A stretch of 24,930 bases of DNA from Clostridiales bacterium (lineage in GTDB: Bacteria > Bacillota > Clostridia > Monoglobales > Firm-18): positions 1 through 24,930 of the forward strand of contig JAIRSR010000077.1 of NCBI GenBank assembly GCA_031255355.1. The letters run 5' to 3'. The notes beneath the pieces were generated by a model. It was given only the letters and a program-made list of their open reading frames with translations. It was not told the origin of the DNA and made no database searches. The number at the start of each line of letters is the position of its first letter. Positions within the stretch are counted from its first letter, which is position 1. This document shows, in pieces, positions 7,182 through 24,930 of the stretch. The translations under genes were made by a program, and so were the position numbers.

Positions 7182-9437
7182 TTAGCGGGCAGCATTGTAT
7201 AGCCGATACAGGATAGACGCGGCTTCGGCGCGTGTCGCCGCCTCATTTGTCCGTGGGTATCCGTTTTCGTACAGCCGCGCGAACAGTCCGTAGGCGATTG
7301 CCGTCAAAACGTCCTCCCGCGCCCACGCGGAAACACCCGATAAATCCTTAATGCCAAGCGCGTCAACCGATAGACCGCCCTGCCGCGCAACACCCCCGCG
7401 CAAACGGTACGCGCGGTTCGCGGCGGCGGCGATTTCCTCCGCCGTCACTTGGTCGTCAGGCGCGAAAACCGCTTCCCGCTTGCCTTTCAAAACGCCCTTG
7501 TAAAAAAGTCCGTCCGCGCCGTCCGCGTACCACGCGCCGTCAGGTACGTCAGTGAAATGCTTCGGATAGCCCCCGCCAAGCCCCAGCACCCGCGCCAGCA
7601 TCACCGCAAATTCCGCGCGTGTCACGGGTTCATAGGGCGCGAACACCGTCGCCGTCTTGCCTTGAATAAAGCCCAAATCGGTCATTTTCGCGATTTCATT
7701 CCGCGCCCAACAGCCGTCTATGTCGGCGAACGCCGTTTCAACGGGCGCGTCCTCCCGTTCGCCGCCCGCCTGCCCGCCCAAGCCCGCGATTTCCGCCGCC
7801 GTTTCAAGGGTCAGCACCGCCAAACTCTTGTTCGGCATATGATAATTCTTGAAATTCGCGGTGTTCCGCTCCGTCGTCACCGCCGTCACAATATCCGCTT
7901 CTTTCGCGCTGTAAATAAAGGATTGCGTGTTCGGCGCGGTGAACACCGTTTCGCTTTTCAGCGTGTAATCATGCTTCAAATCAAAGGCGATATTGAAGTC
8001 AAGGTCTTCCCGCATATTTACCAGAATAATTTTCAAACGGTTCCCGCCCTCCGCCGTCACCAACGCGCTCATTCGGAGGTTGTCGTCCGTTTCGTCCGTC
8101 ACCGGGTCGTCAGAGGTCAAAACGCTCCGCACCACGCGGTCGCCCAGACCGCCGGCATAGACGTGGTACATCTGCCCAACGGGTGATTGGTATAACGTGC
8201 CGCCGACGTACTGCGCCAAGCCCCACCAGCGGCTTTCCTCCCCGCCGTCAAAAAAGGAGTGATACGTCGCGCCGCCCATATCGCCGCGCTTCATCATGAC
8301 GTTAAAGAACTGCGCCGTACTCAGCGCGGAAAATAAATTGATTCTGCCCGCGTCGTCCAAGCCCTCGTCCGCGAAACGCGCGTGTTCCGTCAATAAAAAC
8401 TTCACGCCGTGCCCCGCGCCCAAAACACGCTCCAACGCGTCCGACATATCGTCGAACAAGCCGCTCATGTACGCCGTGGACATGCCGTCATAATAGGGGT
8501 GGAACGCGAGGTAGTCGCAATCCGCGCCAATCGCCCGCGCAACCCCCTCCGTCCATTTGATATGCGATTCCGCTTCGCTCCAAGGCGCGGTTTTGCCGCA
8601 CATGACAAACTTCGCCTCCGGCGCGGCGGCGCGAATCGCCGCGATATGCTTCGGCGCGATTTCAGAGTACCATTCCAACTTCGACTGTGAAAACGCCCAC
8701 ACATTATCCTGTTCCGGCTCGTTCAGCGCGGAGTCGATTTCATTCCCCAACTCAAAAGCGAACACGTTCACCGGCTCCGTCATGCCGTACATGGCGCGGA
8801 GTGCCCCCCACTCGGACTGCCCCGCCTCATGCGTCAAAAACGCGGCGAGGTTGGCGTTGTCCTCCGGCGTGGCGTGTGTGACGGAAATTGTGCATAAATA
8901 CTGACCGTTCGGGTTGATGGACCGCATCAGTTTGACGAACTCCAACGGCCCCATGTTGGTCGCCACGCGTCCCTCACTGCCAAGCGGCGAGACGTCCCGC
9001 GTGTACTTGTTGCCGTCCACCCGCGCACTGCCGGAGCGGGTATTCATTTGCCCGATATTCAAAATCAAATTCGTTTCCTCAATCGCCGCGCCGCCGTACC
9101 GAAACAGCGGAAAGTCAAACACACGCGGCGCGAACGCTTGAAATTCGGGCGCGAAGTCCGTTCCCTCCAGGATATGTCTGTGGCTGCTCTCGTACTGCAC
9201 TCCCAGCATTTCCATCACCGTCGCGTGGAGAGGGTCGTCCTCGTCCACTGTCAAAACAGCGTCCGCCGTCGCGGTTGCGGTCACACTTTCCCGCAATCGC
9301 GCCTGTTCGCTGTCATTCAACGCCGCGTACGCGGGAAGCGAAAGGGTACACGCCGTCAGCAGTAACAGCGCGATACATTTTTCATACCTTCGGTTATACC
9401 TTCGGTTATACCTGCGGTTATACACGCGGTTATACAC
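7182..9437 (-). CDS. Secreted, SLH-anchored clan GH-A glycoside hydrolase, GH51-like and divergent (P5)
   Basis: Likely GTG start at 9437, 8 nt after GGAGG (the ORF track uses 9446). Signal peptide, then W..LR.MYG..EP, FELGNE (acid/base), DYLAFHPYY, LLTEH (candidate nucleophile) and a C-terminal beta-sandwich. Three SLH repeats at about 7190-7730 (TRAE, TAEE, TRAE). Confidence 0.8.
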   Translation of the reverse strand: MYNRVYNRRYNRRYNRRYEKCIALLLLTACTLSLPAYAALNDSEQARLRESVTATATADAVLTVDEDDPLHATVMEMLGVQYESSHRHILEGTDFAPEFQAFAPRVFDFPLFRYGGAAIEETNLILNIGQMNTRSGSARVDGNKYTRDVSPLGSEGRVATNMGPLEFVKLMRSINPNGQYLCTISVTHATPEDNANLAAFLTHEAGQSEWGALRAMYGMTEPVNVFAFELGNEIDSALNEPEQDNVWAFSQSKLEWYSEIAPKHIAAIRAAAPEAKFVMCGKTAPWSEAESHIKWTEGVARAIGADCDYLAFHPYYDGMSTAYMSGLFDDMSDALERVLGAGHGVKFLLTEHARFADEGLDDAGRINLFSALSTAQFFNVMMKRGDMGGATYHSFFDGGEESRWWGLAQYVGGTLYQSPVGQMYHVYAGGLGDRVVRSVLTSDDPVTDETDDNLRMSALVTAEGGNRLKIILVNMREDLDFNIAFDLKHDYTLKSETVFTAPNTQSFIYSAKEADIVTAVTTERNTANFKNYHMPNKSLAVLTLETAAEIAGLGGQAGGEREDAPVETAFADIDGCWARNEIAKMTDLGFIQGKTATVFAPYEPVTRAEFAVMLARVLGLGGGYPKHFTDVPDGAWYADGADGLFYKGVLKGKREAVFAPDDQVTAEEIAAAANRAYRLRGGVARQGGLSVDALGIKDLSGVSAWAREDVLTAIAYGLFARLYENGYPRTNEAATRAEAASILYRLYNAAR

Positions 9438-9440
9438 GCG
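9381..9440 (-). repeat. Five-copy 12-bp imperfect tandem repeat spanning the P4 stop and P5 start
   Basis: Minus-strand units: CGCGTGTATAAC, CGCGTGTATAAC, CGCAGGTATAAC, CGAAGGTATAAC, CGAAGGTATGAA. They encode (R)VYN RVYN RRYN RRYN RRYE in P5. Confidence 0.95.
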
Positions 9441-12210
9441 GCGCACCTCCTTTCAAGCCCGAAAGATAAATCATCTTGGCGGTTTCGGCGCGTGTCGCCG
9501 TTTCGTTCGGCGCGAACGCGCCGTTTCCCCGCCCGGAAACGATCCCCGCGAGTTGCAGTTGCGTCACCGAATCGAACGCCCACTCCGCAATATCGCCGTA
9601 ATCACTGAACCATGCCGTTGTTTCGGTAATCGGCAAGGAAAGCCCCTTGTTCCCCAACGCGCGTACCACAAGAACGGCAATCTCCTGCCGCGTGATTTCA
9701 CGCTCGGGGTGAAAACGGTTCGCGCCGTCGCCGTAGACGATTCCCGCTTCCACACCCGCCTTGACGTAGCCGTAATACCACGCCGCAACGGAAACGTCCT
9801 CAAATAGCAGCGGTTCGGATTCCCGTTCTGTTTCCGGCGCACCCTCGCCGAACGCGGTCAGAACGATTTTCAAAAATTCCGCGCGGGTAATCGCGCCGTC
9901 GGGACGGAACAAGCCGTCCTCATAGCCGCCCACCGCGCCAAGCGCGGTCAGATAGCGGGTCGCCTCGTAACTCCAATGGTCGATCGGGACATCATTGTAA
10001 AGCAGTGTTTTGCCCACCGCCGTACCGTCTGACGGCACAACCGGCGCGGGGGGCGGGGGGTCTAAGGTAAAGCCGCCTCCCCCTCCTCCGCCGCCGCCTT
10101 TTCCTCCTGTGGAGGACGGCTTGACCGGGGGTGTTTCCGGCGTGAAGCCGTCAATAAAGTCCTTGAGATCCTCTATGGTTTGCAGGGTATCCTTTTGTTG
10201 CAGCAACCCTGTATAAAACGCGCGGTTGCCGGCGGTATCCAAGTGTAAGGCGGAAAGCCGCGCCGCGTCATACCCGATCACGCCGCTGAAATCCGTCGTG
10301 ATTTGCCGCATATACTGATAGGTGTCACAGATGCCGAACGCGGTCAGCAGCAACGCCTCATCAAAGCGTTTCGCCACGTCCGCAACGTTTTTGAACTGAA
10401 CGTTTGTCAAACGCGACAGCACCGCCGCTTCCCGCCCGTCATAGTACTGCCCGCCCAGCGTCAAGCCGAACACGGCGTTATGTTCCCGCAACGCCGCCAG
10501 CACCTCCTCCGGCGCGGATAAGCCGTTCAAGCCGCCGACCGCGATTTCGTCCGCGAGGACGCGCTCCAAATACCGCAAATCCTCAAGCCCCGCGCAGGAG
10601 AACGCGGGATAGGTAGCAACACGCTCCAAATAATCCGCGTAAGCGGCGGGGTTCGTCTGTTTCAACGCCGCCGCCGGGGATGCGTCGATTATATCGATCC
10701 GTTGCAGGCTCAAATCGCCGCTTCCCGTGATGATTCCGTCCATCGCGGCAAAATCCTTGGCGGCGACGGCGGCGTTGAGCGCGTCGGTAATCAGCCGCTT
10801 TTGCGCGAAATACCGCGCCGTTTCGCCGCGTTCCGCCGCGTAGGTGTACTCACTGACGACCCGCGCCTTAACCGTAAGCGTTTCCGCGCCGCGTGACGCG
10901 GTAATTTGCGTATCGCCCTCACGGATTCCGTACAACGCGCCGCCGCGCATTTCCGCGACGTCCGGTCGCCGTACGCTCCACGCTATGCCTGTTTCGAGCG
11001 CACCGCCGATTCGCGCCCGCAACGCCAACGGATTCCGCAAAAACGCGATAATTTCCCCCGCCGGCGCGGACGCGCCCGAACGCTCCTTGCCGTACACGTG
11101 GATAAAATCCACTTGCAGGTGGTCGTCGTTCACGGACGAACGGTTTACGCCGAGTTGCAGCAGCATATCGTCCGTGCCGCGCCGCATCAGCCCGCCCGCG
11201 TCAGTCAACGTCAATACCGCGCTCATGGCGGCGTTTCCGCTGTTGCGCACGTCCGCTTTTACGGTGTTTTCCGCCCTGTCCAGCGTGATTTCCATATCAT
11301 ACCAAGCGGTATAGGCAAAATTATCATTGCCGTTGACATAATCCACCGTTGCGCCGTCCACTACCTTGCGGATATACGGACGGTAGGACATCGGCTGCGG
11401 GAACAGCGTATCGCCGTTCCCGAGGATTCCCGCCTCGTAATACGTCCTCTCGTCCTCGCTGACGCAAAAACGCACCGACGCGCGAACACCGTTATACCGC
11501 GCGAATTTCATCGTAACGCGGCTGAGGTCGCGCTCTGACGCGGCGGGGACGTGCAAATTCACAAAGCCGTCATGCGTTCCGCTCTGTTCCGCGACTTGCA
11601 TGGTCGCGTCCGTGCGAATGTACAGCATCACACCTCTGTGCGGGTTGTTGATGTAGCCGACCGATACATCAGAACGCTGCCAATAGCCCTCGCCGTTCGC
11701 CGCGACTACCGTACCGCCGTCCCCGGGTAAATCGTCCCCGCGTACCGCGTTCGCCCTGTCGTAGCGGGAATTCGCGGCATTGTACGTCGTGAACGCGTCA
11801 CTGAACACACGCGTTTCGGCGGCGGAAGCGGTGTTCTCGTACCGCGCGTCTATCCGCGTAAAGACCGAAACCGCCGCCGCGTCCACCTCTTGCGGGAACA
11901 CAATGCCGGAATACGCCGCGTCCGCGTCTTGGTTCAAAAACAGCCCGCCCGCGTCAAAAAAAGCGGAAACTGTTTGCGGCTCCGCGCCCGTAAACTCCAG
12001 CGTTACGGTACGCCCCGCCAACGGCGGGTAAGCAACCAAAGCGACTGCCGTTGGCGTTTCAAAGGTAACGGTGCTTCCCACGGCAAAAACAGCGGTTTCT
12101 TGATACATAGCGGAATTTTCCGCCGACGCGTACGCCCCGCCGTGAGCGGCGCATAGGGCAAGCGCGGCAAACAACGCCAAAATCCTGCTTTTTTGTATCT
12201 TTAACATCAT
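9430..12210 (-). CDS. Secreted multidomain SLH protein, 926 aa, no recognisable catalytic motif; candidate scaffold or glycan binder (P4)
   Basis: GGAGG RBS and signal peptide. Domains: ~240-aa beta-rich domain shared with P1 (11089-11808); Ig-like domain (IAWSVRRPDVAEM..GDTQITAS); alpha-helical repeat region (about 10147-10812); Pro/Gly linker (TPETPPVKP..GGKGGGGGGGG..PPPP); three canonical SLH repeats (TRAE, TRQE, TRAE). Confidence 0.85.
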   Translation of the reverse strand: MMLKIQKSRILALFAALALCAAHGGAYASAENSAMYQETAVFAVGSTVTFETPTAVALVAYPPLAGRTVTLEFTGAEPQTVSAFFDAGGLFLNQDADAAYSGIVFPQEVDAAAVSVFTRIDARYENTASAAETRVFSDAFTTYNAANSRYDRANAVRGDDLPGDGGTVVAANGEGYWQRSDVSVGYINNPHRGVMLYIRTDATMQVAEQSGTHDGFVNLHVPAASERDLSRVTMKFARYNGVRASVRFCVSEDERTYYEAGILGNGDTLFPQPMSYRPYIRKVVDGATVDYVNGNDNFAYTAWYDMEITLDRAENTVKADVRNSGNAAMSAVLTLTDAGGLMRRGTDDMLLQLGVNRSSVNDDHLQVDFIHVYGKERSGASAPAGEIIAFLRNPLALRARIGGALETGIAWSVRRPDVAEMRGGALYGIREGDTQITASRGAETLTVKARVVSEYTYAAERGETARYFAQKRLITDALNAAVAAKDFAAMDGIITGSGDLSLQRIDIIDASPAAALKQTNPAAYADYLERVATYPAFSCAGLEDLRYLERVLADEIAVGGLNGLSAPEEVLAALREHNAVFGLTLGGQYYDGREAAVLSRLTNVQFKNVADVAKRFDEALLLTAFGICDTYQYMRQITTDFSGVIGYDAARLSALHLDTAGNRAFYTGLLQQKDTLQTIEDLKDFIDGFTPETPPVKPSSTGGKGGGGGGGGGFTLDPPPPAPVVPSDGTAVGKTLLYNDVPIDHWSYEATRYLTALGAVGGYEDGLFRPDGAITRAEFLKIVLTAFGEGAPETERESEPLLFEDVSVAAWYYGYVKAGVEAGIVYGDGANRFHPEREITRQEIAVLVVRALGNKGLSLPITETTAWFSDYGDIAEWAFDSVTQLQLAGIVSGRGNGAFAPNETATRAETAKMIYLSGLKGGAPRV

Positions 12211-13364
12211 CGCGATTCCTCCGTTTCCGCGTTTCGGGGTAACAGCCCTGTGAAGAAACGCGCGGCATTTGTAAATACAAACGTCTTGACTTCCGGCGCG
12301 TTTACGTAAAAGGGTACGGTGACTTTCGGGGTCGAAACGGTCAGAGTACTCCCGGGCGCAACGCTTGCCGTCCCCGTGTACAGGCGCGATAGCCGCCCGC
12401 CGTCCGACAACGCCGCCGCCAAAAGGATTTCCGCCGCAGTATCGGTGTGATTCGTAACGTCTACGGAGTAAACGCCGTCCCGCTCGACCGCCGTGGAAAT
12501 ATCAATCCCGCCGTAGGGACGGAACGTAACGCCGAACGTACAACGCGCACCGAAAAAGTCCGCTTCCAGCGTAACCGTGCCGACAGACGCGCCGAGGTAG
12601 ACCAAATTGCCGTCCTCGATCCGTCCGTCACCCGCCGTCACGCGGTAACGCACCAAATCCGCCGCCTCAATCACTTCCCTCACGCCGTCCGAATCGATCC
12701 CCACGGGACGCGCCGCGCCAAGCGGCATAACGGCGCCGCGCCAATCCCCGCCCTTTATGTCAAGGCCGACGGGTGCTGAATGAATGGATAAATCGTCAAT
12801 ATAAATTTTATCATAAGTGTTATCCGACGCGCTCTGACGATTGATGTTAATCATGAAATCGACAAAATTATGCGCGTCATACCGCGCGAACGGAAACGAA
12901 CCGTACACCTTGTACCAGCCCCCGCCCGCCGCTTCCGCGCGAAAGGAAGCGTCCGCCGCCGCGTCGCCGCCCGAACCGCCGCGCATGACCACCAACGGCG
13001 CGACGCGGTCAGACATTCCTCCGTACACACCCTTGATATAGTACGAAAAGTATAACGCCCTACGGCGAATCGTATCGGTAATCACGCCGGACGGCACCGA
13101 ATAGGACAGCGCGGAAAGTCCCGTGCCGCTCCTGTAACTGATTTCCAGGGAACGCTTGCCGCTGTAACGCTCCGCTTCGGTATGCGCGGCGGCAAAGCCC
13201 GCGTCGTTGTGAAAATAATAATTATGGGTGCGGTCACTTTCCATATTCGCGGCGCCGTATTGACTGACGACCGCGCCGTACAGCCTGCGCTCATACGCCG
13301 CCCCCGCGCGGGGAAACAGCAAAATCACCACGGCAAGCGCGGTAAAAACGCGCGTTCGTGTCAC
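12207..13364 (-). CDS. Secreted non-catalytic protein: CBM4/9-like beta-sandwich, Ig-like domain and shared C-terminal domain (P3)
   Basis: Likely GTG start at 13364, 8 nt after AAGGAG (the ORF track uses 13373). Signal peptide ending RAGA-AY. CBM-like pattern YSGKRSLEI..FSYYIKG..GWYKV..IYIDDLSI. No SLH. Confidence 0.75.
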   Translation of the reverse strand: MTRTRVFTALAVVILLFPRAGAAYERRLYGAVVSQYGAANMESDRTHNYYFHNDAGFAAAHTEAERYSGKRSLEISYRSGTGLSALSYSVPSGVITDTIRRRALYFSYYIKGVYGGMSDRVAPLVVMRGGSGGDAAADASFRAEAAGGGWYKVYGSFPFARYDAHNFVDFMININRQSASDNTYDKIYIDDLSIHSAPVGLDIKGGDWRGAVMPLGAARPVGIDSDGVREVIEAADLVRYRVTAGDGRIEDGNLVYLGASVGTVTLEADFFGARCTFGVTFRPYGGIDISTAVERDGVYSVDVTNHTDTAAEILLAAALSDGGRLSRLYTGTASVAPGSTLTVSTPKVTVPFYVNAPEVKTFVFTNAARFFTGLLPRNAETEESR

Positions 13365-13369
13365 GCCGA

Positions 13370-15973
13370 TCACTCCTTTATTAAATATACGTCGGTCAGC
13401 GGACGGAGGGAATTGTCCTCCAAGATCAACGCCCGCGCCAACGCCGCGCCGATTACCGTCGGCGTTCGTACCAAGGGGGAAATTTCCCCGCCCGCCGCAA
13501 CGCCCTCCGCTTCACTTACCGCAACGGCGGTGAGGTTGCCCGCGCCGTCATAAAACGCCAAATACACTTGTACGGAAGCAATCGCCGCGTCCCCGAGGTT
13601 TTGTAAGCCGATAGCCGCCGTCCGCTCCTCCGTCAGCATCCCTAAGGTCAGCCGCGCCCCGTCCTCCGTCCGCAAAGGCGCAATCACGCGCACGGCTTCC
13701 CCCGGTTTGACAAAATCAAGTTCCGTTTCAAACACATCATGCTCCGTTGTGATGCGCAAACGGTACGCGCCCGATACCGCGTCACGCGGGAAAAGCAGTT
13801 CATACCGCTGTGCCGCGCCGAATTTGGTTCCCGCCCCGGCGTAGCGGAGTTCTCCGTCAGCCGCGCTTGTCAGCGTCACGCCAAAGCGTTCGCCGTCCCG
13901 CGTCCGCGCGTCGTTCCAATAGATATGGAACGCCGTTTCATAATCGCCGTTCGGTTGCGAGAGCGGTTCCAACCGCGTCACCGCGCCGCTCGCCCGATAG
14001 TCCAGCCGCACCGTCTTTTGCGCCGCGCCCGCGCCGACGCGCAGGAAATATTCGCCGTTCGGCAACCCGGGCGGCAGCAACGCCTCAAAATAGCCCCTGT
14101 TCCGCGCGATTCCGTCCGCTTGCGCCATGTAAATCACGCCGTCCGGCGTAAGTTCGGGCGATGCGGGATCGGACGCGAACAATACGGCGGTCAGTTCTGA
14201 AACGCCGTTTAACGCGCCGTTTTCAAACAGGGAAAATTCCACCCGCACCCGCTCCGCCGTCACAACCGGCGCGGTATAGGTATCGGCGGGTACGCCGTTC
14301 ACCCGCAGGGAAACCGCGTCATTCGCGGTGTATTGCCGCTCCGTCGGCACAAGGTAATATGCCGTGATGGTCTTTGCGCCGATTGTCTGTGCGGGAACGT
14401 CCGCCGCGTGGATTCGCTCTGCCTTTGCGACCATCGCGTCAGGCGCGGTAATGTCGGTCAGCGGGCCGTTATCCGAGGCGTCGCTTGCTGCGGTGAGGGT
14501 CACGCGTTTTTCCAGTTTATAGTTGTTTTGCGTGGAAAAATCCAACGTATGCGCGGCGTTGGAGGCGTTTACGGCAAGGAGGTTCAACCCGCCCTCCGCT
14601 GTCGTATGCGCCGATACCGTCAAGGTATGCGCCGTGGTTCTCATGTTGTCGCCCGTGACCCGCACCGAATCCACCCCGAACGCGTCAGACGCTAATTTGA
14701 AAAACTCACCCACGCCGGAAAGCGCGAAGCCGAAATCGGGGAACGCCCGCATCAAGCCCCACACCCCGCCGCCGAACGCGTCAGCCGCCGAGGGATAGTC
14801 CATTGTCGTGTGATACACCGCAATCGGCGCGTCAGGGGACTTAATCAAGCGGTTCACCATGTCCGCCGTGGATAGCGTCCCCGCGCGGCCTGTCGCGATG
14901 GTGCGCGAGGCGGTGTTGTAATGTTCCACCCCGCCGAACACCGCGTGTTCCGACAAAAACGGCGCGGGCATCTTTTCTGCGGGAAGTCCGTCCGTACAAA
15001 TGCCGTATCCGTCCCATGTCCAACGGCTGTCCGCATTGAAATACCGATACATACTGCCTGTGTTGTGATAATAGCAATGCACAACGATATAATCCAGCCT
15101 GTCGCTCAATTCCTTTAACAGCAGGTTGATTTTCGTGTTAAACACCGAATATTTTGTTTGGGACTCATGCGGCGTAGTGCAGGACTGCACCGCCAGCGGC
15201 ACGTTCGGGTTGACTTCCCGCAATGCGGGGACGATCGCGCGGCACCACGCGGCGTACATGTCCCCCGCTTCGCCGTAAATCCGATCGTAAATCGCCTGTT
15301 TCTGCGCCGAAGTCCGCGCCGCCGCGAGTTCCGCCCGCACCGCGTCCGTTTCCAATATTTGATTGAAATAAAACCAATCCGTTTCGTTGCCCAACTCTAA
15401 CGCCGCCAAGTTGACCGGCTCCGCAATGCCCGCCTCTACGCGGCGGGAAGCCCAGTTCACGCCGTCCGCGCCAATCGCGGCGGGGTCGCTCGGCATCAAA
15501 GTCAAAAACCGTACCAAATCACGCAAATTGTCCAAATCGTCCTCCACCCGAATGGTAAAGGCAAAGGCGGCGTTCGGCGTGAGGTTCGCGCGGGCGCGAA
15601 TCCATTCCGCAAGCCCGAATGTGTACACCTGCGAAAAATCGTTCACCCCGCGCGATTCCAACGCGCCGACGGTTTCTTTCCAATTAAGGGTGTGCAAAAA
15701 GGCGCGGGCAATCGGGAAGCCGACGCCTGTTTTTTGAAACGCCTCCGCGAAGTCGTTTCGTACCGCCGCGGACGAACCGTTTGCCGCAGAGCCGAAAAAG
15801 CCTATATCGTCATTCAAACCCAGTACCCTTCGGTCTGACGGACGAAGCGCGGCGTTTTCCTCTACCGTAATCGTATATGCCGCCGAAGCCGCGCGGGGAA
15901 GCGAAACGCAAGCGATACTCGCGGCAATCAACGCTACGGCGGTGCGCCGCGCGGTGTGGTTCACCCTCCTCAT
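13370..15973 (-). CDS. Secreted clan GH-A glycoside hydrolase, GH51-like and divergent, with two Ig-like domains and the shared C-terminal domain; no SLH (P2)
   Basis: AAAGGAGGT RBS and signal peptide. Motifs W..RR..AG..EP, LELGNE, DYIVVHCYY, FLSEH. Paralogue of P5. Confidence 0.8.
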   Translation of the reverse strand: MRRVNHTARRTAVALIAASIACVSLPRAASAAYTITVEENAALRPSDRRVLGLNDDIGFFGSAANGSSAAVRNDFAEAFQKTGVGFPIARAFLHTLNWKETVGALESRGVNDFSQVYTFGLAEWIRARANLTPNAAFAFTIRVEDDLDNLRDLVRFLTLMPSDPAAIGADGVNWASRRVEAGIAEPVNLAALELGNETDWFYFNQILETDAVRAELAAARTSAQKQAIYDRIYGEAGDMYAAWCRAIVPALREVNPNVPLAVQSCTTPHESQTKYSVFNTKINLLLKELSDRLDYIVVHCYYHNTGSMYRYFNADSRWTWDGYGICTDGLPAEKMPAPFLSEHAVFGGVEHYNTASRTIATGRAGTLSTADMVNRLIKSPDAPIAVYHTTMDYPSAADAFGGGVWGLMRAFPDFGFALSGVGEFFKLASDAFGVDSVRVTGDNMRTTAHTLTVSAHTTAEGGLNLLAVNASNAAHTLDFSTQNNYKLEKRVTLTAASDASDNGPLTDITAPDAMVAKAERIHAADVPAQTIGAKTITAYYLVPTERQYTANDAVSLRVNGVPADTYTAPVVTAERVRVEFSLFENGALNGVSELTAVLFASDPASPELTPDGVIYMAQADGIARNRGYFEALLPPGLPNGEYFLRVGAGAAQKTVRLDYRASGAVTRLEPLSQPNGDYETAFHIYWNDARTRDGERFGVTLTSAADGELRYAGAGTKFGAAQRYELLFPRDAVSGAYRLRITTEHDVFETELDFVKPGEAVRVIAPLRTEDGARLTLGMLTEERTAAIGLQNLGDAAIASVQVYLAFYDGAGNLTAVAVSEAEGVAAGGEISPLVRTPTVIGAALARALILEDNSLRPLTDVYLIKE

Positions 15974-16003
15974 GTGCTTCTACCTCCTTTCGCGCGGACG
16001 CGC

Positions 16004-17887
16004 TTAATCAAGATTGATTGTGGGGCATAAGGGCGAGAGCAGAGCAAAGCCGTCCTCCGCCCAAAGGAATAGCCTGTGCGCACTGCCGACCTCCTCCGAA
16101 AGATTCAGCGTAACCGGCGCGGCAATACTTTCCGCCGGAACCTTTTCAAAATCGAAGCCAATCAGCCTGTTGCCGCTGTAACTTGCGGCAAGCACGGTAA
16201 TATATTCCGTAACCTTGGACGCGTAAGCGGCGGGGATGCTCACCGTAACCGTGCCGCCGTCCACTTCCCAATGCAACCGCCCCGCTACGCCGGAAACACT
16301 GACGGCAGCAAACTGATTGAAGTCGTTTTCGTTTGCGGATTTTGAGCCGGCTTGGAAAATAACGTCATCCGTCCCACGGTTCAAAAACGCGCCGTCGTCC
16401 GTCAAGGTAACGCTCCACGCGTTGTTCCCCGCGTCATATTCCTGCTCCTTGCTTCCTCTGAACGTAATCCCGCCGGAAGCCGCGTCTATCGTAATCACCG
16501 CGTTCATCCAAGAGGTTCCCCCCGCCGTGGCGGAGGTTGCCGCCGCGTAAGCCGTCTGTATGCCGTTGACCACTTTGCGGAGGTACGGACGCGCCCCGCC
16601 GCTCTCGTGAATGCCCGCCTCGTAAAAACTTTGCTCATCACTGCTCACGTTAAAGCGCATGACCGTCTGTACACCGTTGTACTTCGCGAATACAACGGCG
16701 ATTTTCGTCACGTCATACGCCGCCGCGCCGGGGGAATGCAGGTTAATCAAACCGTACTCTATATCACTTTGCCCGGAAATATTAAGCGATCCGTTGATAA
16801 ACGCGCGAACGCCGTCGTAACCGCCGGCAACGTACCCCTTGAACACGTTGGAACGTTTCCAATAACCGTTGACGTTCGGCCGGGCGTCGCCCACCACCGT
16901 CGCGCCGCCGGAATCCGCCGTCGTGCCGCGCACCGCCGTCCCCGCCGTCGTTTTCGCGTTGTTCGCGTTGTATGCGGAGAAATCATCATAGAAGATATTG
17001 ACCTCTCTGTTCGGCGTGCCGTAAATATCCACATAATCTACCGAAACCCGGTTATTTTCATTGCGGGGACGAAGCCACGCGCCGCCGATTTGGAACACCA
17101 TATTGCCTATGCCTCTTTCGAGGAATTCCCCCTGTTCCGTGTATACACCGCTGTACAGCACTGTGTTATCGTTGCCGTTTTTCAGGGTATATGAAATTGT
17201 TTTCGCGTCCTTGTCAATGTCCACTTCAGAGATAAACCATGAAGTACCGCCGTGTGTTTGCGTATCCGCTGCCACAAGTTCCGTCCCATGTCCGTTTACC
17301 ACCTTGCGGATATAGGCGTAGCCCGTTTTGCCGCTGCCCGCTATCGTTTCCTCATTTGCTCTCAATCCGCTAAGCCCTACCTCGTAAAAGGACTTCTCAT
17401 CCGCGCTGACGTTAAACCGCTGGATTGCCCGCGCGTCGTTATACCGCGCGTATCTTACCTCAAACTTCGTCAAACTGTAATCCACGGCGCGGTCGGAGTA
17501 CAAATTCACCATAGACTGTTCCCATGTGCTGTGTCCCGCAATTTCAAGGGTGTCATCGCCCTCGATAAACGTTTGTATGCCATACGCGCCGATGTCCGTG
17601 TTAATCCACCCCGTACCCGTTTCGCTTACGTTAGAACGCTTCCAATAGCCGCCCAACGCCGCGCGGTCGTCCGCTACCACCGTCGCGCCGCCGGAATCCG
17701 CCGTCACGCCGCGCACCGCGTTTGCCTCGCCCCTTTTGGCGTTGGCGTCGGTGTAGGTATCAAACTCGTCATGGAATATGAGCGCACCCTCAGCCGAAGC
17801 GGTAACCGGCGCGATTCCCGCCAACATACCGCACAGCAGCGCGAACGCCGCCAAAACCGAAATCCCTCTTTTGATGACCTTTAACAT
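16004..17887 (-). CDS. Secreted protein with two tandem copies of an unrecognised ~240-aa beta-rich domain and the shared C-terminal domain; no SLH (P1)
   Basis: AAGGGGG RBS; signal peptide ending ASA-E. Internal duplication 17018-17779 versus 16289-16996. Confidence 0.85.
   Translation of the reverse strand: MLKVIKRGISVLAAFALLCGMLAGIAPVTASAEGALIFHDEFDTYTDANAKRGEANAVRGVTADSGGATVVADDRAALGGYWKRSNVSETGTGWINTDIGAYGIQTFIEGDDTLEIAGHSTWEQSMVNLYSDRAVDYSLTKFEVRYARYNDARAIQRFNVSADEKSFYEVGLSGLRANEETIAGSGKTGYAYIRKVVNGHGTELVAADTQTHGGTSWFISEVDIDKDAKTISYTLKNGNDNTVLYSGVYTEQGEFLERGIGNMVFQIGGAWLRPRNENNRVSVDYVDIYGTPNREVNIFYDDFSAYNANNAKTTAGTAVRGTTADSGGATVVGDARPNVNGYWKRSNVFKGYVAGGYDGVRAFINGSLNISGQSDIEYGLINLHSPGAAAYDVTKIAVVFAKYNGVQTVMRFNVSSDEQSFYEAGIHESGGARPYLRKVVNGIQTAYAAATSATAGGTSWMNAVITIDAASGGITFRGSKEQEYDAGNNAWSVTLTDDGAFLNRGTDDVIFQAGSKSANENDFNQFAAVSVSGVAGRLHWEVDGGTVTVSIPAAYASKVTEYITVLAASYSGNRLIGFDFEKVPAESIAAPVTLNLSEEVGSAHRLFLWAEDGFALLSPLCPTINLD
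16289..17779 (-). repeat. Intragenic tandem domain duplication in P1 (third copy in P4 at 11089-11808)
   Basis: Both copies share IF.D.F..Y..NAK, AVRG.TADSGGATVV, GYWKRSNV, A.YN, RFNVS.DE.SFYE.G, Y.RKVVNG, GGTSW and RG...FQ.G. Confidence 0.9.
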
Positions 17888-17923: not shown

Positions 17924-18775
17924 TCACTCTTTCACCGCACCCGCCGCCAAGCCGGATACGAAGTACTTGCCGGCACAGGCATACGCCGCCACCACGGGAA
18001 TCAGCGCGATTGCGGAACCCGCCAGCATGAGGTTCCACGACGAAGCCGCGCCGCCTCCGCTTTTCAACGCCATCAGCCCTACAATCAGCGTCTGCTGTTT
18101 TGGATTTGTCATGGTAAAAATCGTCGGCATGATGTAATCGTTCCAACTCCACTGAAATGTCAAAATCGCCACCGTCGCTAAAATAGGCTTCAGCATAGGC
18201 AGAATCACGCGGCAATAGATGCCGAAAAAGTCACAGCCGTCGATTTTCGCCGCCTCGTCCACCGCACGCGGAATCGTGGACACATAGCCGCGCACCAGGT
18301 ACACGTTCACAATCGGCACGCCGAACACGTTCAGCAAAATCAGCGCGGGAAGCGAACGGTCCAGCCGCAGAAGCCCCAGCACTTGAAACGTGGCGTAAAT
18401 CCCGATATTCCCCACCTTGATGAACATCAGCGATATAAAACAGCCGAAAATCAGCCGCTTGAAAGGGAACCGCCCCCGCGCGAACACGTACCCGCCCATA
18501 GAAGCCGTCACCACCGCGATCAGCACGTTTGCCAAGGTGTAATACAGGCTGTTCAGCCCCATAAGCCCCGCGTTAAAAGCGGGGTCCGTCCACACGGTGA
18601 CGTAATTTTCCAGCGTGGGCGCGGCGGGGAACACCCGCGCCGGCTCCGCCATAATCTCCATGTTGGTCTTAAAGGACGACGCGACCGTGTACACCAACGG
18701 AAACGCGGTAATGACAAAGATCACGCCCAAAAACAAGTAAATGAAAATATTTTCAATGAGCAAGCGTTTTTTCAT
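17924..18775 (-). CDS. Carbohydrate ABC transporter permease (CUT1, MalG-like)
   Basis: Multiple transmembrane segments; EAA loop VDEAAKIDG; WSWNDY motif. Confidence 0.95.
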   Translation of the reverse strand: MKKRLLIENIFIYLFLGVIFVITAFPLVYTVASSFKTNMEIMAEPARVFPAAPTLENYVTVWTDPAFNAGLMGLNSLYYTLANVLIAVVTASMGGYVFARGRFPFKRLIFGCFISLMFIKVGNIGIYATFQVLGLLRLDRSLPALILLNVFGVPIVNVYLVRGYVSTIPRAVDEAAKIDGCDFFGIYCRVILPMLKPILATVAILTFQWSWNDYIMPTIFTMTNPKQQTLIVGLMALKSGGGAASSWNLMLAGSAIALIPVVAAYACAGKYFVSGLAAGAVKE

Positions 18776-18810
18776 CAGGCGATCCCCCTTAGACCGAAGT
18801 CGAATATTCC

Positions 18811-19755
18811 TTATACTGACGGCATTTTTTTGCTTACCTTGTCATAGGCGAGGGCGACTACCGCGAAAATCACCGTCGTAACGACGGACATCGCGCAGCC
18901 GTACCCCAAGCGCGGCTTCGCCCCCGCCGCCATAAAGCCCGGCACGAATTGACGCGTCAGATACGCCATGACGGAAAGTGTCTGCCCGCCCGGTGCGCCG
19001 TTGGTGGAAGTGAGGATAAACTCATTCACCCCCAGCGTCCCCACCAACGACAGCAATAAGATGATTTGCAGCACCGGCGCGATCATCGGCACCGTTATTT
19101 TGCGGAACGCCGTAAAGCCTGACGCGCCGTCCAACCGCGCGGATTCGTAAATATCCTCTGAAATCCCCGCGAGCGCCGCCATAAAATACATGACGTTGAT
19201 TCCGAAAGTGCTCCACACGCCGCCCGTGACCAACACGGCGAACGCCGTCCCCCTCCCGGCGAACCAATCAACGCCCTCACGCACCGCGCCGATTTTTAAC
19301 AGCGTACCGTTCACCCAGCCGAAGTACCCGAACATATTGGTAAAAATCAAGCCGACTACCGCCACACTGATAATGTTAGGCAGATAGAACACCGCGCGGA
19401 AGAAGTGCGACCCGCGCAGCCGCCTGTTCAGCATCAGCGCAAGAATCATGGCAAGGCATAATTCTATAGGGATTTTCAACGCCGCGTACAAAAGCGTATT
19501 CGCCCAGGTACGCCAATACGTCAGGTCTACGGTGAACATACTGATGAAGTTTTGCAAACCGATAAAGCGCGTGTTCGCGGCAATGCCGTCATAGGCGTAA
19601 AACGCCCAGCGAAACGTCCAGATGATAGGGTATACCGATAATACCAAAAACCCGATAATCTGTGTGCCGATCATGAGGAAGCACTGCAACGCCTCTTTGT
19701 GTTTCTCGCGTTGGATCGAGGCGGGCGACCCTCCCTGCCTTGTTGTATTTTTCAA
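18811..19755 (-). CDS. Carbohydrate ABC transporter permease (CUT1, MalF-like)
   Basis: TTG start with AGGGGG RBS; FIGLQNF motif; EAA loop IYESARLDGAS. Confidence 0.95.
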   Translation of the reverse strand: MKNTTRQGGSPASIQREKHKEALQCFLMIGTQIIGFLVLSVYPIIWTFRWAFYAYDGIAANTRFIGLQNFISMFTVDLTYWRTWANTLLYAALKIPIELCLAMILALMLNRRLRGSHFFRAVFYLPNIISVAVVGLIFTNMFGYFGWVNGTLLKIGAVREGVDWFAGRGTAFAVLVTGGVWSTFGINVMYFMAALAGISEDIYESARLDGASGFTAFRKITVPMIAPVLQIILLLSLVGTLGVNEFILTSTNGAPGGQTLSVMAYLTRQFVPGFMAAGAKPRLGYGCAMSVVTTVIFAVVALAYDKVSKKMPSV

Positions 19756-19784
19756 CGATTTGTCCCCCCTAAGAGCCTTTCACA

Positions 19785-21167
19785 TTACCGCACGGGGTTC
19801 CAACCGGGAATGTCCCGCGCTTTTGGGTCGCGATCCGGGTGCGTCGCGTAATACCGCTGTTTCGCGTCGTTTTTTAAGTCGGTATACTTCACTAACGCGT
19901 CCTTGACCGGCGTTTTGCCCGTCCACACTTCCGAAAGGAAGTATTCGTAAAATTCGGGCTGTCCCCCCAATACAGAGGAAATATTCGGCTCCCACGAGGT
20001 GCGGACGCTAATCTCCGTCAACGCGCAAAACTCTTTCCAGCCCTTTGGCGCACCGTCCAAAGATACGTCCTTGACCGTTTGCCAATTGTAAGGGATTTCC
20101 ACCCCCGCTTGGTAAGTGGAAGTAACAAAATCGTCGCTTGTGAAAAATTTAAGCACTTCCATGATTACATCGCCGCCCGCATCGGAAAGTGCCTTGCGCG
20201 TGACGTAAAACGTAGAGCCGAACTCCATACGCTGTAAGTATTTTTCCGCGCCGTCTACCGTGGGATACGGCGCGACGCCCCAATCAAACTGCGCGGGGAA
20301 CTGGTCGTTGTACACGCCTACGTCAAAGGAATACGCCATTTTCATTCCGATTTTCCCAAGCGCGAACTGTGCCCGCGCGGGGTCGTTATCCAAGCCCTCC
20401 GCGCCGGGGTAGATGCTGCCGTCCTCTTTCATGCCCAAATACGCGCTCATAATCGGCTCTAACGGCGTGTAATCATAAATTCCGGTACCGGGATTGTACC
20501 CCTCGTGCCCCGCGCTGCTCAGCAGCGGGTGCAGAAATTCGCTCCCGAAAAACCCGCCCCATTTCAGCGGCAAAATAAAGCCGTACTCCCGCTTGTCCGG
20601 GTTGGTCAGCCGTTTCGCGTATTCGCGGAGTTCCGCGTAACTTTTCGGCGGCGTAGGCTCGCCGTTCGCGTCCACGATTCCCGCCGCGCGGAACATTTCC
20701 TTGTTATACACCATGCCCTGTGTCGCCGCGCCGTAGGGCAGGGAATAGTACTTGTCGCCGATATAATTCCGCTCTACCCGCGCTTCGTCCTTGTACTTGT
20801 CAATCAGCGCGTTGCCGCCCGGCAACTCATTATACGGCGCGATGAAGTCCGATTCCACCATTTTTTCCACGTCAACGCCCGCGATAAATAAATCCGGCGC
20901 TTGCCCGCTTTGCAGCGCGAGTTCGATCTGTTGGGTCAGCGCGCTGCCCTCCTTTACGACGTAATCTATCATGACGCCCTTTTTCGCGCCCGCATCCTGG
21001 TTCCACGCGTTAATCAGCCTGTCATAAATCGCTTTGCTGCCGGTGCTGTCCGACCAAATGACGACCTTTTTTACCCCGCCGTCCGTCTGTCCTCCCCCGC
21101 AGCCCGCAAGCAAGCCTGTGAGCGCGGTCAAGATGAGTGCCGCCGCCAACTTTCGCTTACCAATCAT
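19785..21167 (-). CDS. Carbohydrate ABC transporter substrate-binding lipoprotein (SBP family 1)
   Basis: GGGAGG RBS; lipobox LLAG-C23; typical SBP1 segments SGQAPDLF, YSLPY, MVYNKEMF, DWGVAPYP. Confidence 0.95.
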   Translation of the reverse strand: MIGKRKLAAALILTALTGLLAGCGGGQTDGGVKKVVIWSDSTGSKAIYDRLINAWNQDAGAKKGVMIDYVVKEGSALTQQIELALQSGQAPDLFIAGVDVEKMVESDFIAPYNELPGGNALIDKYKDEARVERNYIGDKYYSLPYGAATQGMVYNKEMFRAAGIVDANGEPTPPKSYAELREYAKRLTNPDKREYGFILPLKWGGFFGSEFLHPLLSSAGHEGYNPGTGIYDYTPLEPIMSAYLGMKEDGSIYPGAEGLDNDPARAQFALGKIGMKMAYSFDVGVYNDQFPAQFDWGVAPYPTVDGAEKYLQRMEFGSTFYVTRKALSDAGGDVIMEVLKFFTSDDFVTSTYQAGVEIPYNWQTVKDVSLDGAPKGWKEFCALTEISVRTSWEPNISSVLGGQPEFYEYFLSEVWTGKTPVKDALVKYTDLKNDAKQRYYATHPDRDPKARDIPGWNPVR

Positions 21168-21374: not shown

Positions 21375-22208
21375 TTACGCTTCGACATTCACCCAAGTGA
21401 AAGGTGTTTCCAACGCGCGTTGCCCCGCGTGACGCGCCGCCATGATTGCCAGCGTCCGCGCGTGCGGTACGGGGATTTCGCCTGTTTCAAAAAATTGCAG
21501 CATTTCCGCGATAAACCGCTCGAACAGGTCGGATTTCACCTCGACGGATTGCGAATGACCGTCCGCGTACCCGATTTGCGCGGAAAATCCCGCGTTCGCG
21601 AAATGCGCCGTCCGCGCGGTACGTCCGTCGGCAAACGCAAAGACCAACGCGGGGTGACGCGCCGTTCCCACGGACATCACCCGCTTTACAACGCCGTCCG
21701 TCAAATAGATGATTGGTTCGATTTGGTGGATGGAATAGATAGCAAAACTGCCCGGGCCGACGGTTTGCACCGTTTCGATCCCCGCGCGTTCCACGCGGCT
21801 GTATTCCTCCACAAATCCCAGCGCGGAACAGGAATAGCACGGTGTGCCGTGCGCGTCAGCCAAGTCAAACATACGCTTCGCCGCCGCGAGGTCCGGCGCG
21901 AAAGTCTTATCCACATACACAGGCTTACCGCTCCTGAGCGGCAAATCCACCAACGTTTCATGCTGTTCCGGGTTGTCCGGCGAAAGTACCACAATACAAT
22001 CGCTGTGTTCCACAACTTCCTCTATCGTTTGCGCGAGGGGGATTCCCGTGCGCCGCGACCATTCGGCGTTGGTCACGCCGCCCGGCTTGTCACACTTCGC
22101 CCACGCGGAAGCGACTTGAAACGCGCCGCCGTGCTTTTTGATAAAGCCGGGGTAATTGTCGGCGTGCCATTCGTCCAGATAATAATCAATAAATCCTATT
22201 TTTTTCAC
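21375..22208 (-). CDS. Atypical Gfo/Idh/MocA-like oxidoreductase (Rossmann fold)
   Basis: GTG start with GGAGG RBS, GTGA overlap with the upstream gene. DCIVVLSPD..H..L...L..GKPVYVDK pattern. 277 aa; lacks the canonical GxGxxG and EKP motifs. Confidence 0.75.
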   Translation of the reverse strand: MKKIGFIDYYLDEWHADNYPGFIKKHGGAFQVASAWAKCDKPGGVTNAEWSRRTGIPLAQTIEEVVEHSDCIVVLSPDNPEQHETLVDLPLRSGKPVYVDKTFAPDLAAAKRMFDLADAHGTPCYSCSALGFVEEYSRVERAGIETVQTVGPGSFAIYSIHQIEPIIYLTDGVVKRVMSVGTARHPALVFAFADGRTARTAHFANAGFSAQIGYADGHSQSVEVKSDLFERFIAEMLQFFETGEIPVPHARTLAIMAARHAGQRALETPFTWVNVEA

Positions 22209-23275
22209 AGTGTAACCTCCTCTTGTTTTTCCGCAGAACGGTAAATCGCGTCGAGAAGCCGCGCCGTAACAAGCACCGTGTCGATATGGGACGGCAATTT
22301 CTCCCCTGTTTCCGTACAGCGCAAAAACGCGTCGATCTCGTTTTGGAACGCACCGCCGAACATACCGCCCGCGCCAAGCGTGTAGCCTGTTTTGGTGAGC
22401 ATACCGTCCGCCGCGCCGTATTGGACGAAATCCGCGCCGTAGTTCAGACGAATCCCCGCCTTGGTACCCATAAAGTCAATGAACATCTCGTTTTCGCCGA
22501 TATTTTGCGCCCACGCGCCGTTGAACGTAATCACGGGACCGGACGTGCGGACCACGCCCGTCACCGCGTCGTCCACATCGCAGACGCCGTGCGGGTTCGG
22601 CGGCCCCGCCCACATATCGGTGTAGGTGTAATCGCCAATCGGGTTGCCTAACTTGCAAAACGCCGCGCCGCTCACCGTGCGCGGTAAAGGGTCGCCGCAG
22701 CAGTACATCACAATGTCGAGGAAGTGTACCCCCCAATCGATCAGCACCCCGCCGCCGGAGACCGCCTTGGTGGTAAACGCGCCGCCCAGCCCGGGAATCG
22801 CGCGGTGAGAGCGGAAACTGACATACACGCTGTAGACCTCCCCCAACCCGCCGCCGTCGATAATCGCCTTAACGCGGTTCACCGCGTCGTTAAAGCGGTT
22901 GACTACGCCGATGTTAAGGATTTTCCCCGTTTCGCCGCATACGCGCTGCATTTCCAACGCCTCGGTCAAAGTCCGCGCCGCAGGCTTTTCGCAAAGCGTG
23001 TGCTTGCCCGCGTTCAGCGCGTCTACCGCGATCAAGCCGTGCGCGTCGTTGGGCGTGCAGACCGATACCGCGTCCACCGACGCGTCCGCGAGTACTTCCT
23101 TGTAGTCAGTCACCGCCTTGCCGCAACCGTATTTTTCTACCGCCGCCCGCGCCCGCTCCGGCAAAATATCGCAAAAATACGCGATTTCCGCGCTGTCGTT
23201 CGCCAAATACGACGGTATATGCGCCGCGTTCGCGATACTGCCGCAGCCAATGATACCTATTTTGTGCTTGGACAT
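22205..23275 (-). CDS. Gfo/Idh/MocA family NAD-dependent oxidoreductase (YcjS-like glycoside 3-dehydrogenase candidate)
   Basis: Motifs KIGIIGCGSIA, VSVCTPN..H, CEKP and GGGVLIDWGVHFLD. Confidence 0.9.
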   Translation of the reverse strand: MSKHKIGIIGCGSIANAAHIPSYLANDSAEIAYFCDILPERARAAVEKYGCGKAVTDYKEVLADASVDAVSVCTPNDAHGLIAVDALNAGKHTLCEKPAARTLTEALEMQRVCGETGKILNIGVVNRFNDAVNRVKAIIDGGGLGEVYSVYVSFRSHRAIPGLGGAFTTKAVSGGGVLIDWGVHFLDIVMYCCGDPLPRTVSGAAFCKLGNPIGDYTYTDMWAGPPNPHGVCDVDDAVTGVVRTSGPVITFNGAWAQNIGENEMFIDFMGTKAGIRLNYGADFVQYGAADGMLTKTGYTLGAGGMFGGAFQNEIDAFLRCTETGEKLPSHIDTVLVTARLLDAIYRSAEKQEEVTL

Positions 23276-24421: not shown

Positions 24422-24930
24422 ATGAATACAATCTCTTTACAAGCGGAACGCGCCGTCGGCGGCATTGCGGAAGCGGGCGCGAACGTCGTTTGGGACGCGG
24501 TTTTAAGCGAATCGGGCGGTATCGGCTACGACGCGGATACAGGCGTCGTCACACTGCAAGAACCGGGCAGGTATGAATTTCATTGGTGGGTCGCGACGCA
24601 AGCCGCGAACGCCGCGAACGGAATCGTTTTCACGCTGACGTCCTCGCAAGGGGATACCGTGATAGGCAATTCCCCCGCAAAAACAGGAGAAGTCACCGGG
24701 ACGGCGGTGCTTGAAATCCCCTCCGCGCCTGTTTCCGTAACGCTGAAAAATGAGAGCGGCGGCGCGGTGTTCTACTCCGCCGTCGTCCCCGCAAAGGCCG
24801 CGCTAACCGTCGTCGGCGATACAGCGGCGGTTCCGTCCTACGGCGCGTTTCGCCACGATCCGTCGGAGGGCGGGGGATATATTGAGGAAAATACCAACAT
24901 CATTTTCAATCAAGTCATCGGCGAATACGC
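24422..24930 (+). CDS. Partial CDS (runs off the window): exosporium/collagen-like-protein family protein with BclA-C/C1q-like domain(s)
   Basis: AGGAGG RBS, ATG at 24422, open to the window end (absent from the ORF track). MNTISLQAER..NVVWD..YDADTGVVTLQEPGRYEFHWWVATQ..SSQGD..GNSPAKTGEV resembles, from memory, the N-terminal domain of clostridial collagen-like spore proteins. A second similar domain appears to begin at SYGAF..NIIFNQV. Confidence 0.7.
   Translation, partial: MNTISLQAERAVGGIAEAGANVVWDAVLSESGGIGYDADTGVVTLQEPGRYEFHWWVATQAANAANGIVFTLTSSQGDTVIGNSPAKTGEVTGTAVLEIPSAPVSVTLKNESGGAVFYSAVVPAKAALTVVGDTAAVPSYGAFRHDPSEGGGYIEENTNIIFNQVIGEY

Follow-up and report, generated by a model that had tools for sequence, protein, structure and literature searches.

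A rare concanavalin A-like domain family in a termite-gut clostridial locus, and its probable role as a glycan-binding module of a Gram-positive cell-surface system

We describe a beta-rich domain that occurs in three copies in two genes, here called P1 and P4, on a stretch of 24,930 nucleotides from a Clostridiales bacterium (GenBank assembly GCA_031255355.1, contig JAIRSR010000077.1, positions 1 to 24,930 of the forward strand). The DNA originates from a termite-gut metagenome; the whole stretch is referred to below as the window, and the coordinates of its features are collected in Table 1. The domain is a real, rare and previously unannotated family of about 210-250 residues with a known fold. 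We consider it probable (about 0.6) that it represents a new family of non-catalytic glycan-binding modules, belonging to a Gram-positive cell-surface system that harvests glycans. The binding of glycans is inferred from the fold, the fusions and the gene order, and of the evidence collected here the domain architectures and the genomic context are the strongest.

Results and Discussion

The three copies of the domain

The genes of the region are all on the minus strand. A preliminary description of this DNA, made from the sequence without database searches, had placed three copies of about 240 residues across P1 and P4, and alignment with MAFFT, BLASTP comparison and translation reproduce these copies exactly at the positions given in Table 1. 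The copies align end to end with 54 invariant columns, the second P1 copy and the P4 copy being 44% and 35% identical to the first P1 copy, respectively, and the BLASTP values (2e-43 between the two P1 copies, 1e-34 to 1e-39 between P4 and each P1 copy) indicate, at the level of sequence, a similarity far beyond chance. A profile built from the three copies did not find a fourth one among the proteins of the window. P1 and P4 each have a typical N-terminal signal peptide that ends in ASA|E (read by eye).

The sequence blocks listed in the preliminary description turn out to be of two kinds. Those of the form F.D.F..Y...N, W..S.V,.NL, R..VS.DE..YYE.G, PY..KV.NG and W are found throughout the family, as judged from 56 copies from relatives, whereas AVRG....GG.TVV, A(R/K)YN and RG...(F/L)Q.G are restricted to the three copies of the window. 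The restricted blocks may reflect duplication or homogenisation, or one ligand per locus. The ending D(Y/F)...YG, noted for two of the three copies, is also seen in the MAFFT alignment. The middle region of P4 and its N-terminal 100 residues gave no family match. Directly before the SLH (surface-layer homology) repeats, P4 has about 12 glycines in a row and then a proline-rich linker (residues ~705-735; 10005-10100, minus strand).

Domain architectures and gene order in relatives

The family profile (from alignment A2, which contains 31 family sequences) and the other modules of the window were mapped onto all hits, and this gave five recurring architectures. In the first one, a signal peptide is followed by two to three copies and a conserved tail of about 90 residues (P1, P0003, P0008, P0017 and P0021). 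In the second, three to five or more tandem copies stand N-terminal to a GH51-like catalytic domain of clan GH-A (P0005, P0006, P0010 and P0022), and in the third the copies precede an SGNH esterase (P0004 with four copies, P0016 with two, one of them partial). The fourth is a protein similar to p388 of the window with one added copy (P0011). In the fifth, a copy is followed by a middle region and SLH repeats, as in P4, in a 909-residue protein of locus L042 and on contig C254 of the window's own genome; contig C46 of the same genome has the copy and the middle region.

The catalytic parts of the four proteins of the second type are homologous to p754, an enzyme encoded next to P4 (BLASTP 3e-49 to 2e-34). 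p754 aligns with GH51 arabinofuranosidases in the PDB and keeps the GNE acid/base motif of clan GH-A, and p867, also encoded in the window, is its paralogue. The structural definition of a carbohydrate-binding module (CBM) is a discrete non-catalytic module contiguous with a catalytic module; in this respect the domain has an autonomous modelled fold and is fused to GH51-like or SGNH domains in six relatives. In the window itself the copies are not fused to an enzyme, the enzyme being encoded adjacent instead. Tandem copies that are fused to, or stand beside, glycosidases and esterases behave as binding modules do and unlike catalytic domains, and since the domain travels with divergent arabinofuranosidase-like enzymes, a sugar-binding module is more likely than an enzyme.

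The gene order is conserved across unrelated metagenome contigs (Table 2). Two permease genes followed by the gene of a tandem-copy protein are common to C58, L018, L042 and the window, where P1 is directly downstream of two permeases of an ABC (ATP-binding cassette) transporter. The window's own metagenome-assembled genome (MAG), which is 55% complete, holds at least eight copies (on C192, C58, C46 and C254), along with at least three additional paralogous versions of the system (on C58, C46 and C254), a multiplication like that of polysaccharide utilisation loci (PULs).

Table 2. Order of genes in loci related to the window (square brackets enclose one protein; perm, permease; SBP, substrate-binding protein; mid, P4-like middle region).
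Locus	Gene order
L042	perm-perm-[2 copies + tail]-[copy + mid + SLH]-[GH51-like + SLH]-[p960-like SLH]-[p867-like]
L045	[3 copies + tail]-[p867-like]-[p388-like]; GH127, GFO/Idh/MocA and AraC genes nearby
L019	[GH51-like + SLH]-[p960-like]-[608-aa open reading frame]-[p867-like]-[p388-like + copy]
L018	SBP-perm-perm-[4 copies + GH51-like + copy]-[copy...]
Own genome, C58 (L048)	SBP-perm-perm-[2 copies]
Own genome, C46 (L046)	[copy]-[GH51-like + tail]-[copy + mid]
Own genome, C254 (L047)	[copy + mid + SLH]-[GH51-like]

A FastTree phylogeny of 61 copies groups them by locus and not by their position in the protein. The three copies of the window form a clade (support 0.998), as do the three copies of the syntenic L042 block (0.95) and the C58/C46 copies of the own genome (0.992), so that copies from separate genes of a locus are more closely related to each other than to any others. 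This clustering fits one shared ligand per locus, reached by repeated duplication or homogenisation.

The fold

The AlphaFold2 model of the first copy (P1 residues 33-293, built on A2) has a pLDDT of 86.2 and a pTM of 0.88 and is all-beta with 17 strands. The strand pattern had earlier suggested a sandwich of the concanavalin-A/LamG kind, and the model agrees with this, showing a concanavalin A (ConA)-like, or L-type-lectin, jelly roll. In a comparison with 48,161 PDB chains by VIA-align, the carbohydrate-recognition domain (CRD) of ERGIC-53 (1r1z) and the thrombospondin C-terminal domain (1ux6) are on top (Z 16.0), followed by peanut lectin (1ciw, Z 15.7), CBM66 (4b1m, Z 15.3, root mean square deviation (rmsd) 2.6 over 160 residues), a phage Dit CBM2 (Z 15.1), the DUF1080 protein BT3469 (4jqt, Z 14.5), 2duo (Z 14.2) and many GH16 enzymes (Z 12.6-13.9). 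The ranking is flat, with Z going from 16 down to 12.6 at 5-14% identity, and no solved structure is prominent. Foldseek places legume lectins at the top of the PDB matches (E 4e-7, TM-score 0.43-0.48). The matches among clusters of the AlphaFold database (AFDB) are weak (TM about 0.5). In the ESM Atlas, the commonest named neighbours are clusters rich in PF06439, the DUF1080 family (TM 0.58-0.64, rmsd 2.4-2.9). The model thus places the domain in the ConA-like lectin/glucanase superfamily at the fold level, without a close solved or modelled relative.

Conserved residues: binding site or active site?

Over the 56 copies from relatives, and in the numbering of P1, the best conserved residue is S85 (53 copies), followed by E164 (51), W82 and N128 (48 each), G171 (46), F42, Y45 and Y167 (44 each), E169 and Y168 (42 each), R157 (41) and D163 (36). 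K195 is found in 35 copies, with Arg in 9 others, and W217 in 37, with Phe or Tyr in 17. Many of the conserved residues are inside predicted strands of the model, which is what a cleft on the face of a sheet, as in type-B CBMs, GH16 and DUF1080, would give; judging from the strand positions, such a cleft may be present here. The polar and aromatic residues that recur throughout the family (W82, S85, N128, R157, D163, E164, Y167, Y168, E169, K195 and W217) could then form a binding site, a Ca2+ site or both. A structural Ca2+ site made of the D, E and N residues is equally possible.

Two points weigh against a purely binding role. Firstly, 210-250 residues is more than most CBMs have and equals the size of GH16 and DUF1080 enzymes. 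Secondly, acids are among the best conserved residues, and E164, E169 and D163 could equally be catalytic. Nevertheless we find it unlikely that the domain is itself an enzyme, be it a metal-dependent lyase or hydratase of the DUF1080 kind that acts on 3-keto-glycosides, or a GH16-like or polysaccharide lyase-like enzyme that cleaves glycans at the surface. Besides its size, such an enzyme would share its fold with GH16 (Z about 13) and with the DUF1080 neighbours named above, and E164, E169, N128 and S85 are nearly invariant. Moreover, the window encodes two GFO/Idh/MocA oxidoreductases and a xylose-isomerase-like protein, and these are partner types of the 3-keto-glycoside pathway (10.1101/2024.03.25.586180). 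On the other side are the two to five or more tandem copies and the fusions to GH51-like and SGNH catalytic domains, together with the comparisons that follow.

Relationship to DUF1080 was examined with alignment A3, for which 14 true PF06439 domains were taken from the own genome and from genomes across the class; one metagenome protein, P0023, was added for the local hhalign comparison only. The hhalign probability of A2 against A3 is 0.3% in local mode (with P0023) and 0.08% in global mode (without it), and the hidden Markov models (HMMs) of A2 and of the 14 PF06439 sequences do not detect each other's members in either direction. As the copies and the family members also lack a PF06439 match, membership of the domain in DUF1080 is not supported. 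The conserved channel set of BT2 (Glu103, Asn134, Glu164, Gln166, Tyr190, Lys245, Gln273 and His275; 10.1101/2024.03.25.586180) could not be aligned reliably to the new family, and the LQDH-type motif at the C-terminus of PF06439 has no family-wide counterpart in the 56 copies. The catalytic motif of GH16 (ExDxxE, scanned as the regular expression E-[ILV]-D-[IVAF]-[VILMF]0-1-E) is present in neither P1 nor P4.

The cellular compartments probably also differ. In the Bacteroides system, the site of action of DUF1080 proteins is the periplasm, which they share with a TAT-exported GFO/Idh/MocA oxidoreductase (10.1101/2024.03.25.586180). In the window, P1 and P4 have signal peptides, whereas the oxidoreductase at 22205-23275 has none at its start (read by eye), and the other flanking enzymes are taken as cytoplasmic from their family type. 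A partnership of the domain with the oxidoreductases across the membrane is unlikely. In the Gram-positive operon of the same preprint, no DUF1080 protein was found (10.1101/2024.03.25.586180), and the TIM-barrel protein, the dehydrogenase and the two GFO/Idh/MocA proteins that flank P1 and P4 are the gene set of a cytoplasmic, Gram-positive-type 3-keto-glycoside (non-Koshland) pathway without a DUF1080 protein. The preliminary description had taken the fold of DUF1080 hydratases as a lead towards an enzymatic role. The shared fold holds, DUF1080 proteins being among the nearest structural neighbours; the membership is not supported, and the enzymatic role becomes less likely in view of the tandem copies, the catalytic fusions and the cytoplasmic oxidoreductases.

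The organism has both families, since the own genome encodes a genuine PF06439 domain (contig C170, 1479-1952, minus strand, locus L027; 47.8 bits) in an open frame of 475 residues. In P0023 (1130 residues), which has copies of the new domain, the PF06439 cut-off is reached (34.7 bits) by the summed score only, no single stretch being significant. This protein is ambiguous, being either an intermediate between the families or noise, and it was not used as a bridge.

In a variant of the enzyme explanation, to which we give little weight, the domain would represent a new extracellular enzyme family, metal-dependent and active on glycans, with a lectin-type jelly roll. Such enzymes would be a Gram-positive surface counterpart of the DUF1080 lyase/hydratases, or have some other non-Koshland activity; their metal and catalytic site would consist of E164, E169 and N128, and a polymer would be the substrate of the tandem copies.

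The C-terminal tail and a possible role in assembly

P1-like proteins from other organisms share the conserved tail of P1, whose AlphaFold2 model (pLDDT 87.6) is an Ig/FN3-like sandwich. Foldseek returns generic FN3/Ig matches alone (TM 0.5-0.6), and the tail was rejected as a dockerin or cohesin on these grounds. The tails of p388 and p867 resemble it weakly, at 16-18% identity, and phmmer misses this likeness.

One could imagine that the domain, instead of binding substrate glycan, makes protein-protein contacts or takes part in cell-surface assembly, as a scaffold or for adhesion, either recruiting enzymes that bear the tail or attaching to polymers of the wall. The domain does occur in the scaffold-like, SLH-anchored P4, the tail is the sole other part of P1, and the copies co-evolve by locus, as those of interacting partners also would. 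We regard this role as improbable, however: the nearest structures are overwhelmingly CRDs, CBMs and glycanases, tandem fusion to glycosidase or esterase domains is typical of substrate targeting, and family scans of the copies and the 31 members detected no cohesin, dockerin or other assembly family.

Sequence searches and rarity of the family

The libraries searched were a 2025 copy of Pfam, NCBIfam of 2026 and the PDB sequences. None of the three copies matches Pfam, where the sole listing was a sub-threshold pectinesterase (E 0.017), or NCBIfam, and two profiles (of 3 and 31 sequences) found nothing among the PDB sequences. When the 31 family members were scanned singly, scattered lone matches appeared at E > 0.005. 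There was no match to the Pfam CBM models, to Lectin_legB or Lectin_leg-like (PF00139/PF03388) or to GH16 for the copies and the 31 members, with the lectins and PF06439 scanned at E <= 1. The earlier statement that the domain fits no named family is therefore borne out for these three libraries by sequence and profile.

The family is rare. A HMMER search of 1.84 billion cluster representatives gave 27 proteins at E <= 1e-3, of which only the two from the window score below 1e-30, and P1 is a singleton in a collection of 5.8 billion clusters. When P1 and p388 were used as queries in word-index homology searches, they matched only themselves, and a search for related loci with p754 gave a single remote hit, in a genome that lies outside this family. 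The domain is present in 3 of 151 genomes of the same order and in 6 of 399 sampled for the class; genomes that have it contain several copies.

The least probable explanation is that the domain belongs to an already defined CAZy CBM family, or to a recent DUF, for which the libraries searched lack a model: weak, sub-threshold matches to PF22847 (the BT_3657-like N-terminal domain) do occur in two relatives, P0004 and P0014 (E 1.3e-5 and 5.8e-4), but no PF22847 domain turned up in 200 genomes of the class, and the lack of library matches, the flat structural ranking, the weak AFDB matches and the small number of representatives all speak against it.

A putative glycan-harvesting system

If the domain is a glycan-binding module, the following picture can be proposed for the system, which would be a conserved one of SLH-bearing, Clostridia-type bacteria, here of the termite gut. 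P4, with its SLH repeats as the anchor, would keep one copy at the cell wall, while P1 would be secreted and present two copies and the Ig/FN3-like tail. Between them, the two proteins would bind a plant-type polysaccharide beside the SLH-anchored p754 and its paralogue p867, and the products would be imported by the adjacent ABC transporter. The degradation would then be finished in the cytoplasm by the GH36 enzyme, the two GFO/Idh/MocA oxidoreductases, the xylose-isomerase-like TIM-barrel protein and the Zn-dependent alcohol dehydrogenase. The ligand is possibly an arabinose- or galactose-decorated hemicellulose or an arabinogalactan; this hint comes from the GH51-like enzymes, from the weak beta-L-arabinopyranosidase match of the GH36 protein of the window and from the GH127 gene in locus L045.

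It is useful to compare the domain with known systems of the same fold. The CRDs of L-type lectins (legume lectins, ERGIC-53 and VIP36) are its best structural matches, with about 194 of 261 residues, and have a similar size (about 230 residues), but the identity is 7-12%, the TM-scores are 0.43-0.48, and neither Lectin_legB nor Lectin_leg-like of Pfam is matched. Legume lectins have a loop-based binding site, whereas the conserved polar residues of the new family are mostly in strands. The DUF1080 proteins (PF06439, BT2157-type) share the jelly roll, and the window also has genes of the GFO/Idh/MocA and xylose-isomerase-like types; on the other hand there is no sequence or profile relation, and the new domain forms tandem arrays that are joined to catalytic domains of other kinds. 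CBM66 (4b1m) and other beta-sandwich CBMs have a ConA-like sandwich, a tandem arrangement and fusions to glycoside hydrolase or esterase domains in common with it. The new domain is, however, about 60-80 residues larger, has no sequence likeness to the CBM models of Pfam, and is also found in stand-alone (P1-like) and SLH-anchored (P4-like) proteins. Finally, GH16 glycanases have the fold of the superfamily and a similar size but differ by the catalytic motif, absent from P1 and P4, and by the lack of a Pfam GH16 match.

If glycan binding is true, the domain would be a new CBM-type family and a marker of a conserved, so far undescribed Gram-positive surface system for glycan harvesting, composed of a tandem-lectin protein, an SLH-anchored lectin protein, two divergent GH51-like enzymes and an ABC importer, and multiplied in a termite-gut genome much like PULs in Bacteroidota. 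The clustering of the copies by locus suggests, as far as sequences can tell, that the domain may set the substrate specificity of each system. In that case it could help to assign substrates to uncultured degraders of lignocellulose and be a source of new glycan probes. The finding is not surprising in kind, as ConA-like binding modules on glycosidases are common, and it does not imply a new kind of biology.

Other features of the window

Table 1. Features of the window discussed in the text.
Feature	Positions	Strand	Description	Basis or similarity
P1 gene	16004-17887	minus	627 aa; signal peptide, two domain copies, C-terminal tail	
P1 copy 1	17018-17779	minus	P1 aa 37-290	
P1 copy 2	16289-16996	minus	P1 aa 298-533	41-44% identity to copy 1
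P1 C-terminal tail	16007-16288	minus	~94 aa (aa 534-627), Ig/FN3-like beta-sandwich	AlphaFold2 model and conservation in P1-like proteins
P4 gene	9430-12210	minus	926 aa; signal peptide, ~100-aa N-terminal segment, one copy, ~325-aa middle region, Gly/Pro linker, three SLH repeats	
P4 copy	11089-11808	minus	P4 aa 135-374	33-37% identity to P1 copies
P4 cell-wall anchor	9433-10005	minus	SLH, aa 736-926	PF00395, E 6.7e-34, 3 stretches
p754	7182-9446	minus	GH51-like clan GH-A catalytic domain and SLH; putative partner enzyme	NCBIfam ArfA, E 2.7e-9
p867	13370-15973	minus	second, more divergent GH51-like paralogue without SLH	adjacency to P1-like genes in L045, L019 and L042
p388	12207-13373	minus	secreted protein without family match	homologue fused to one domain copy in P0011
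Sugar ABC transporter	17924-21167	minus	CUT1-type, binding protein and two permeases, upstream of P1	
Oxidoreductase 1	22205-23275	minus	GFO/Idh/MocA, full-length	
Oxidoreductase 2	21375-22208	minus	GFO/Idh/MocA, second frame	
TIM-barrel protein	160-1095	minus	xylose-isomerase-like	
Alcohol dehydrogenase	998-2044	minus	Zn-dependent	

Homologues of p388 keep an N-terminal block that ends in YIDD, a middle block and a tail, the whole of which is joined to the domain copy in P0011; in the window, the p388 gene overlaps the start of P4 by 4 bases. At the start of p754 (9380-9446, minus strand), RRYN units are repeated, as a 12-bp tandem repeat, before the hydrophobic core of the signal. On the plus strand, an open reading frame of 293 residues without a family match fully overlaps the second oxidoreductase frame (21375-22208), and an open-ended reading frame at 24422-24928 has a weak match to the BclA C-terminal domain (E 0.0075).

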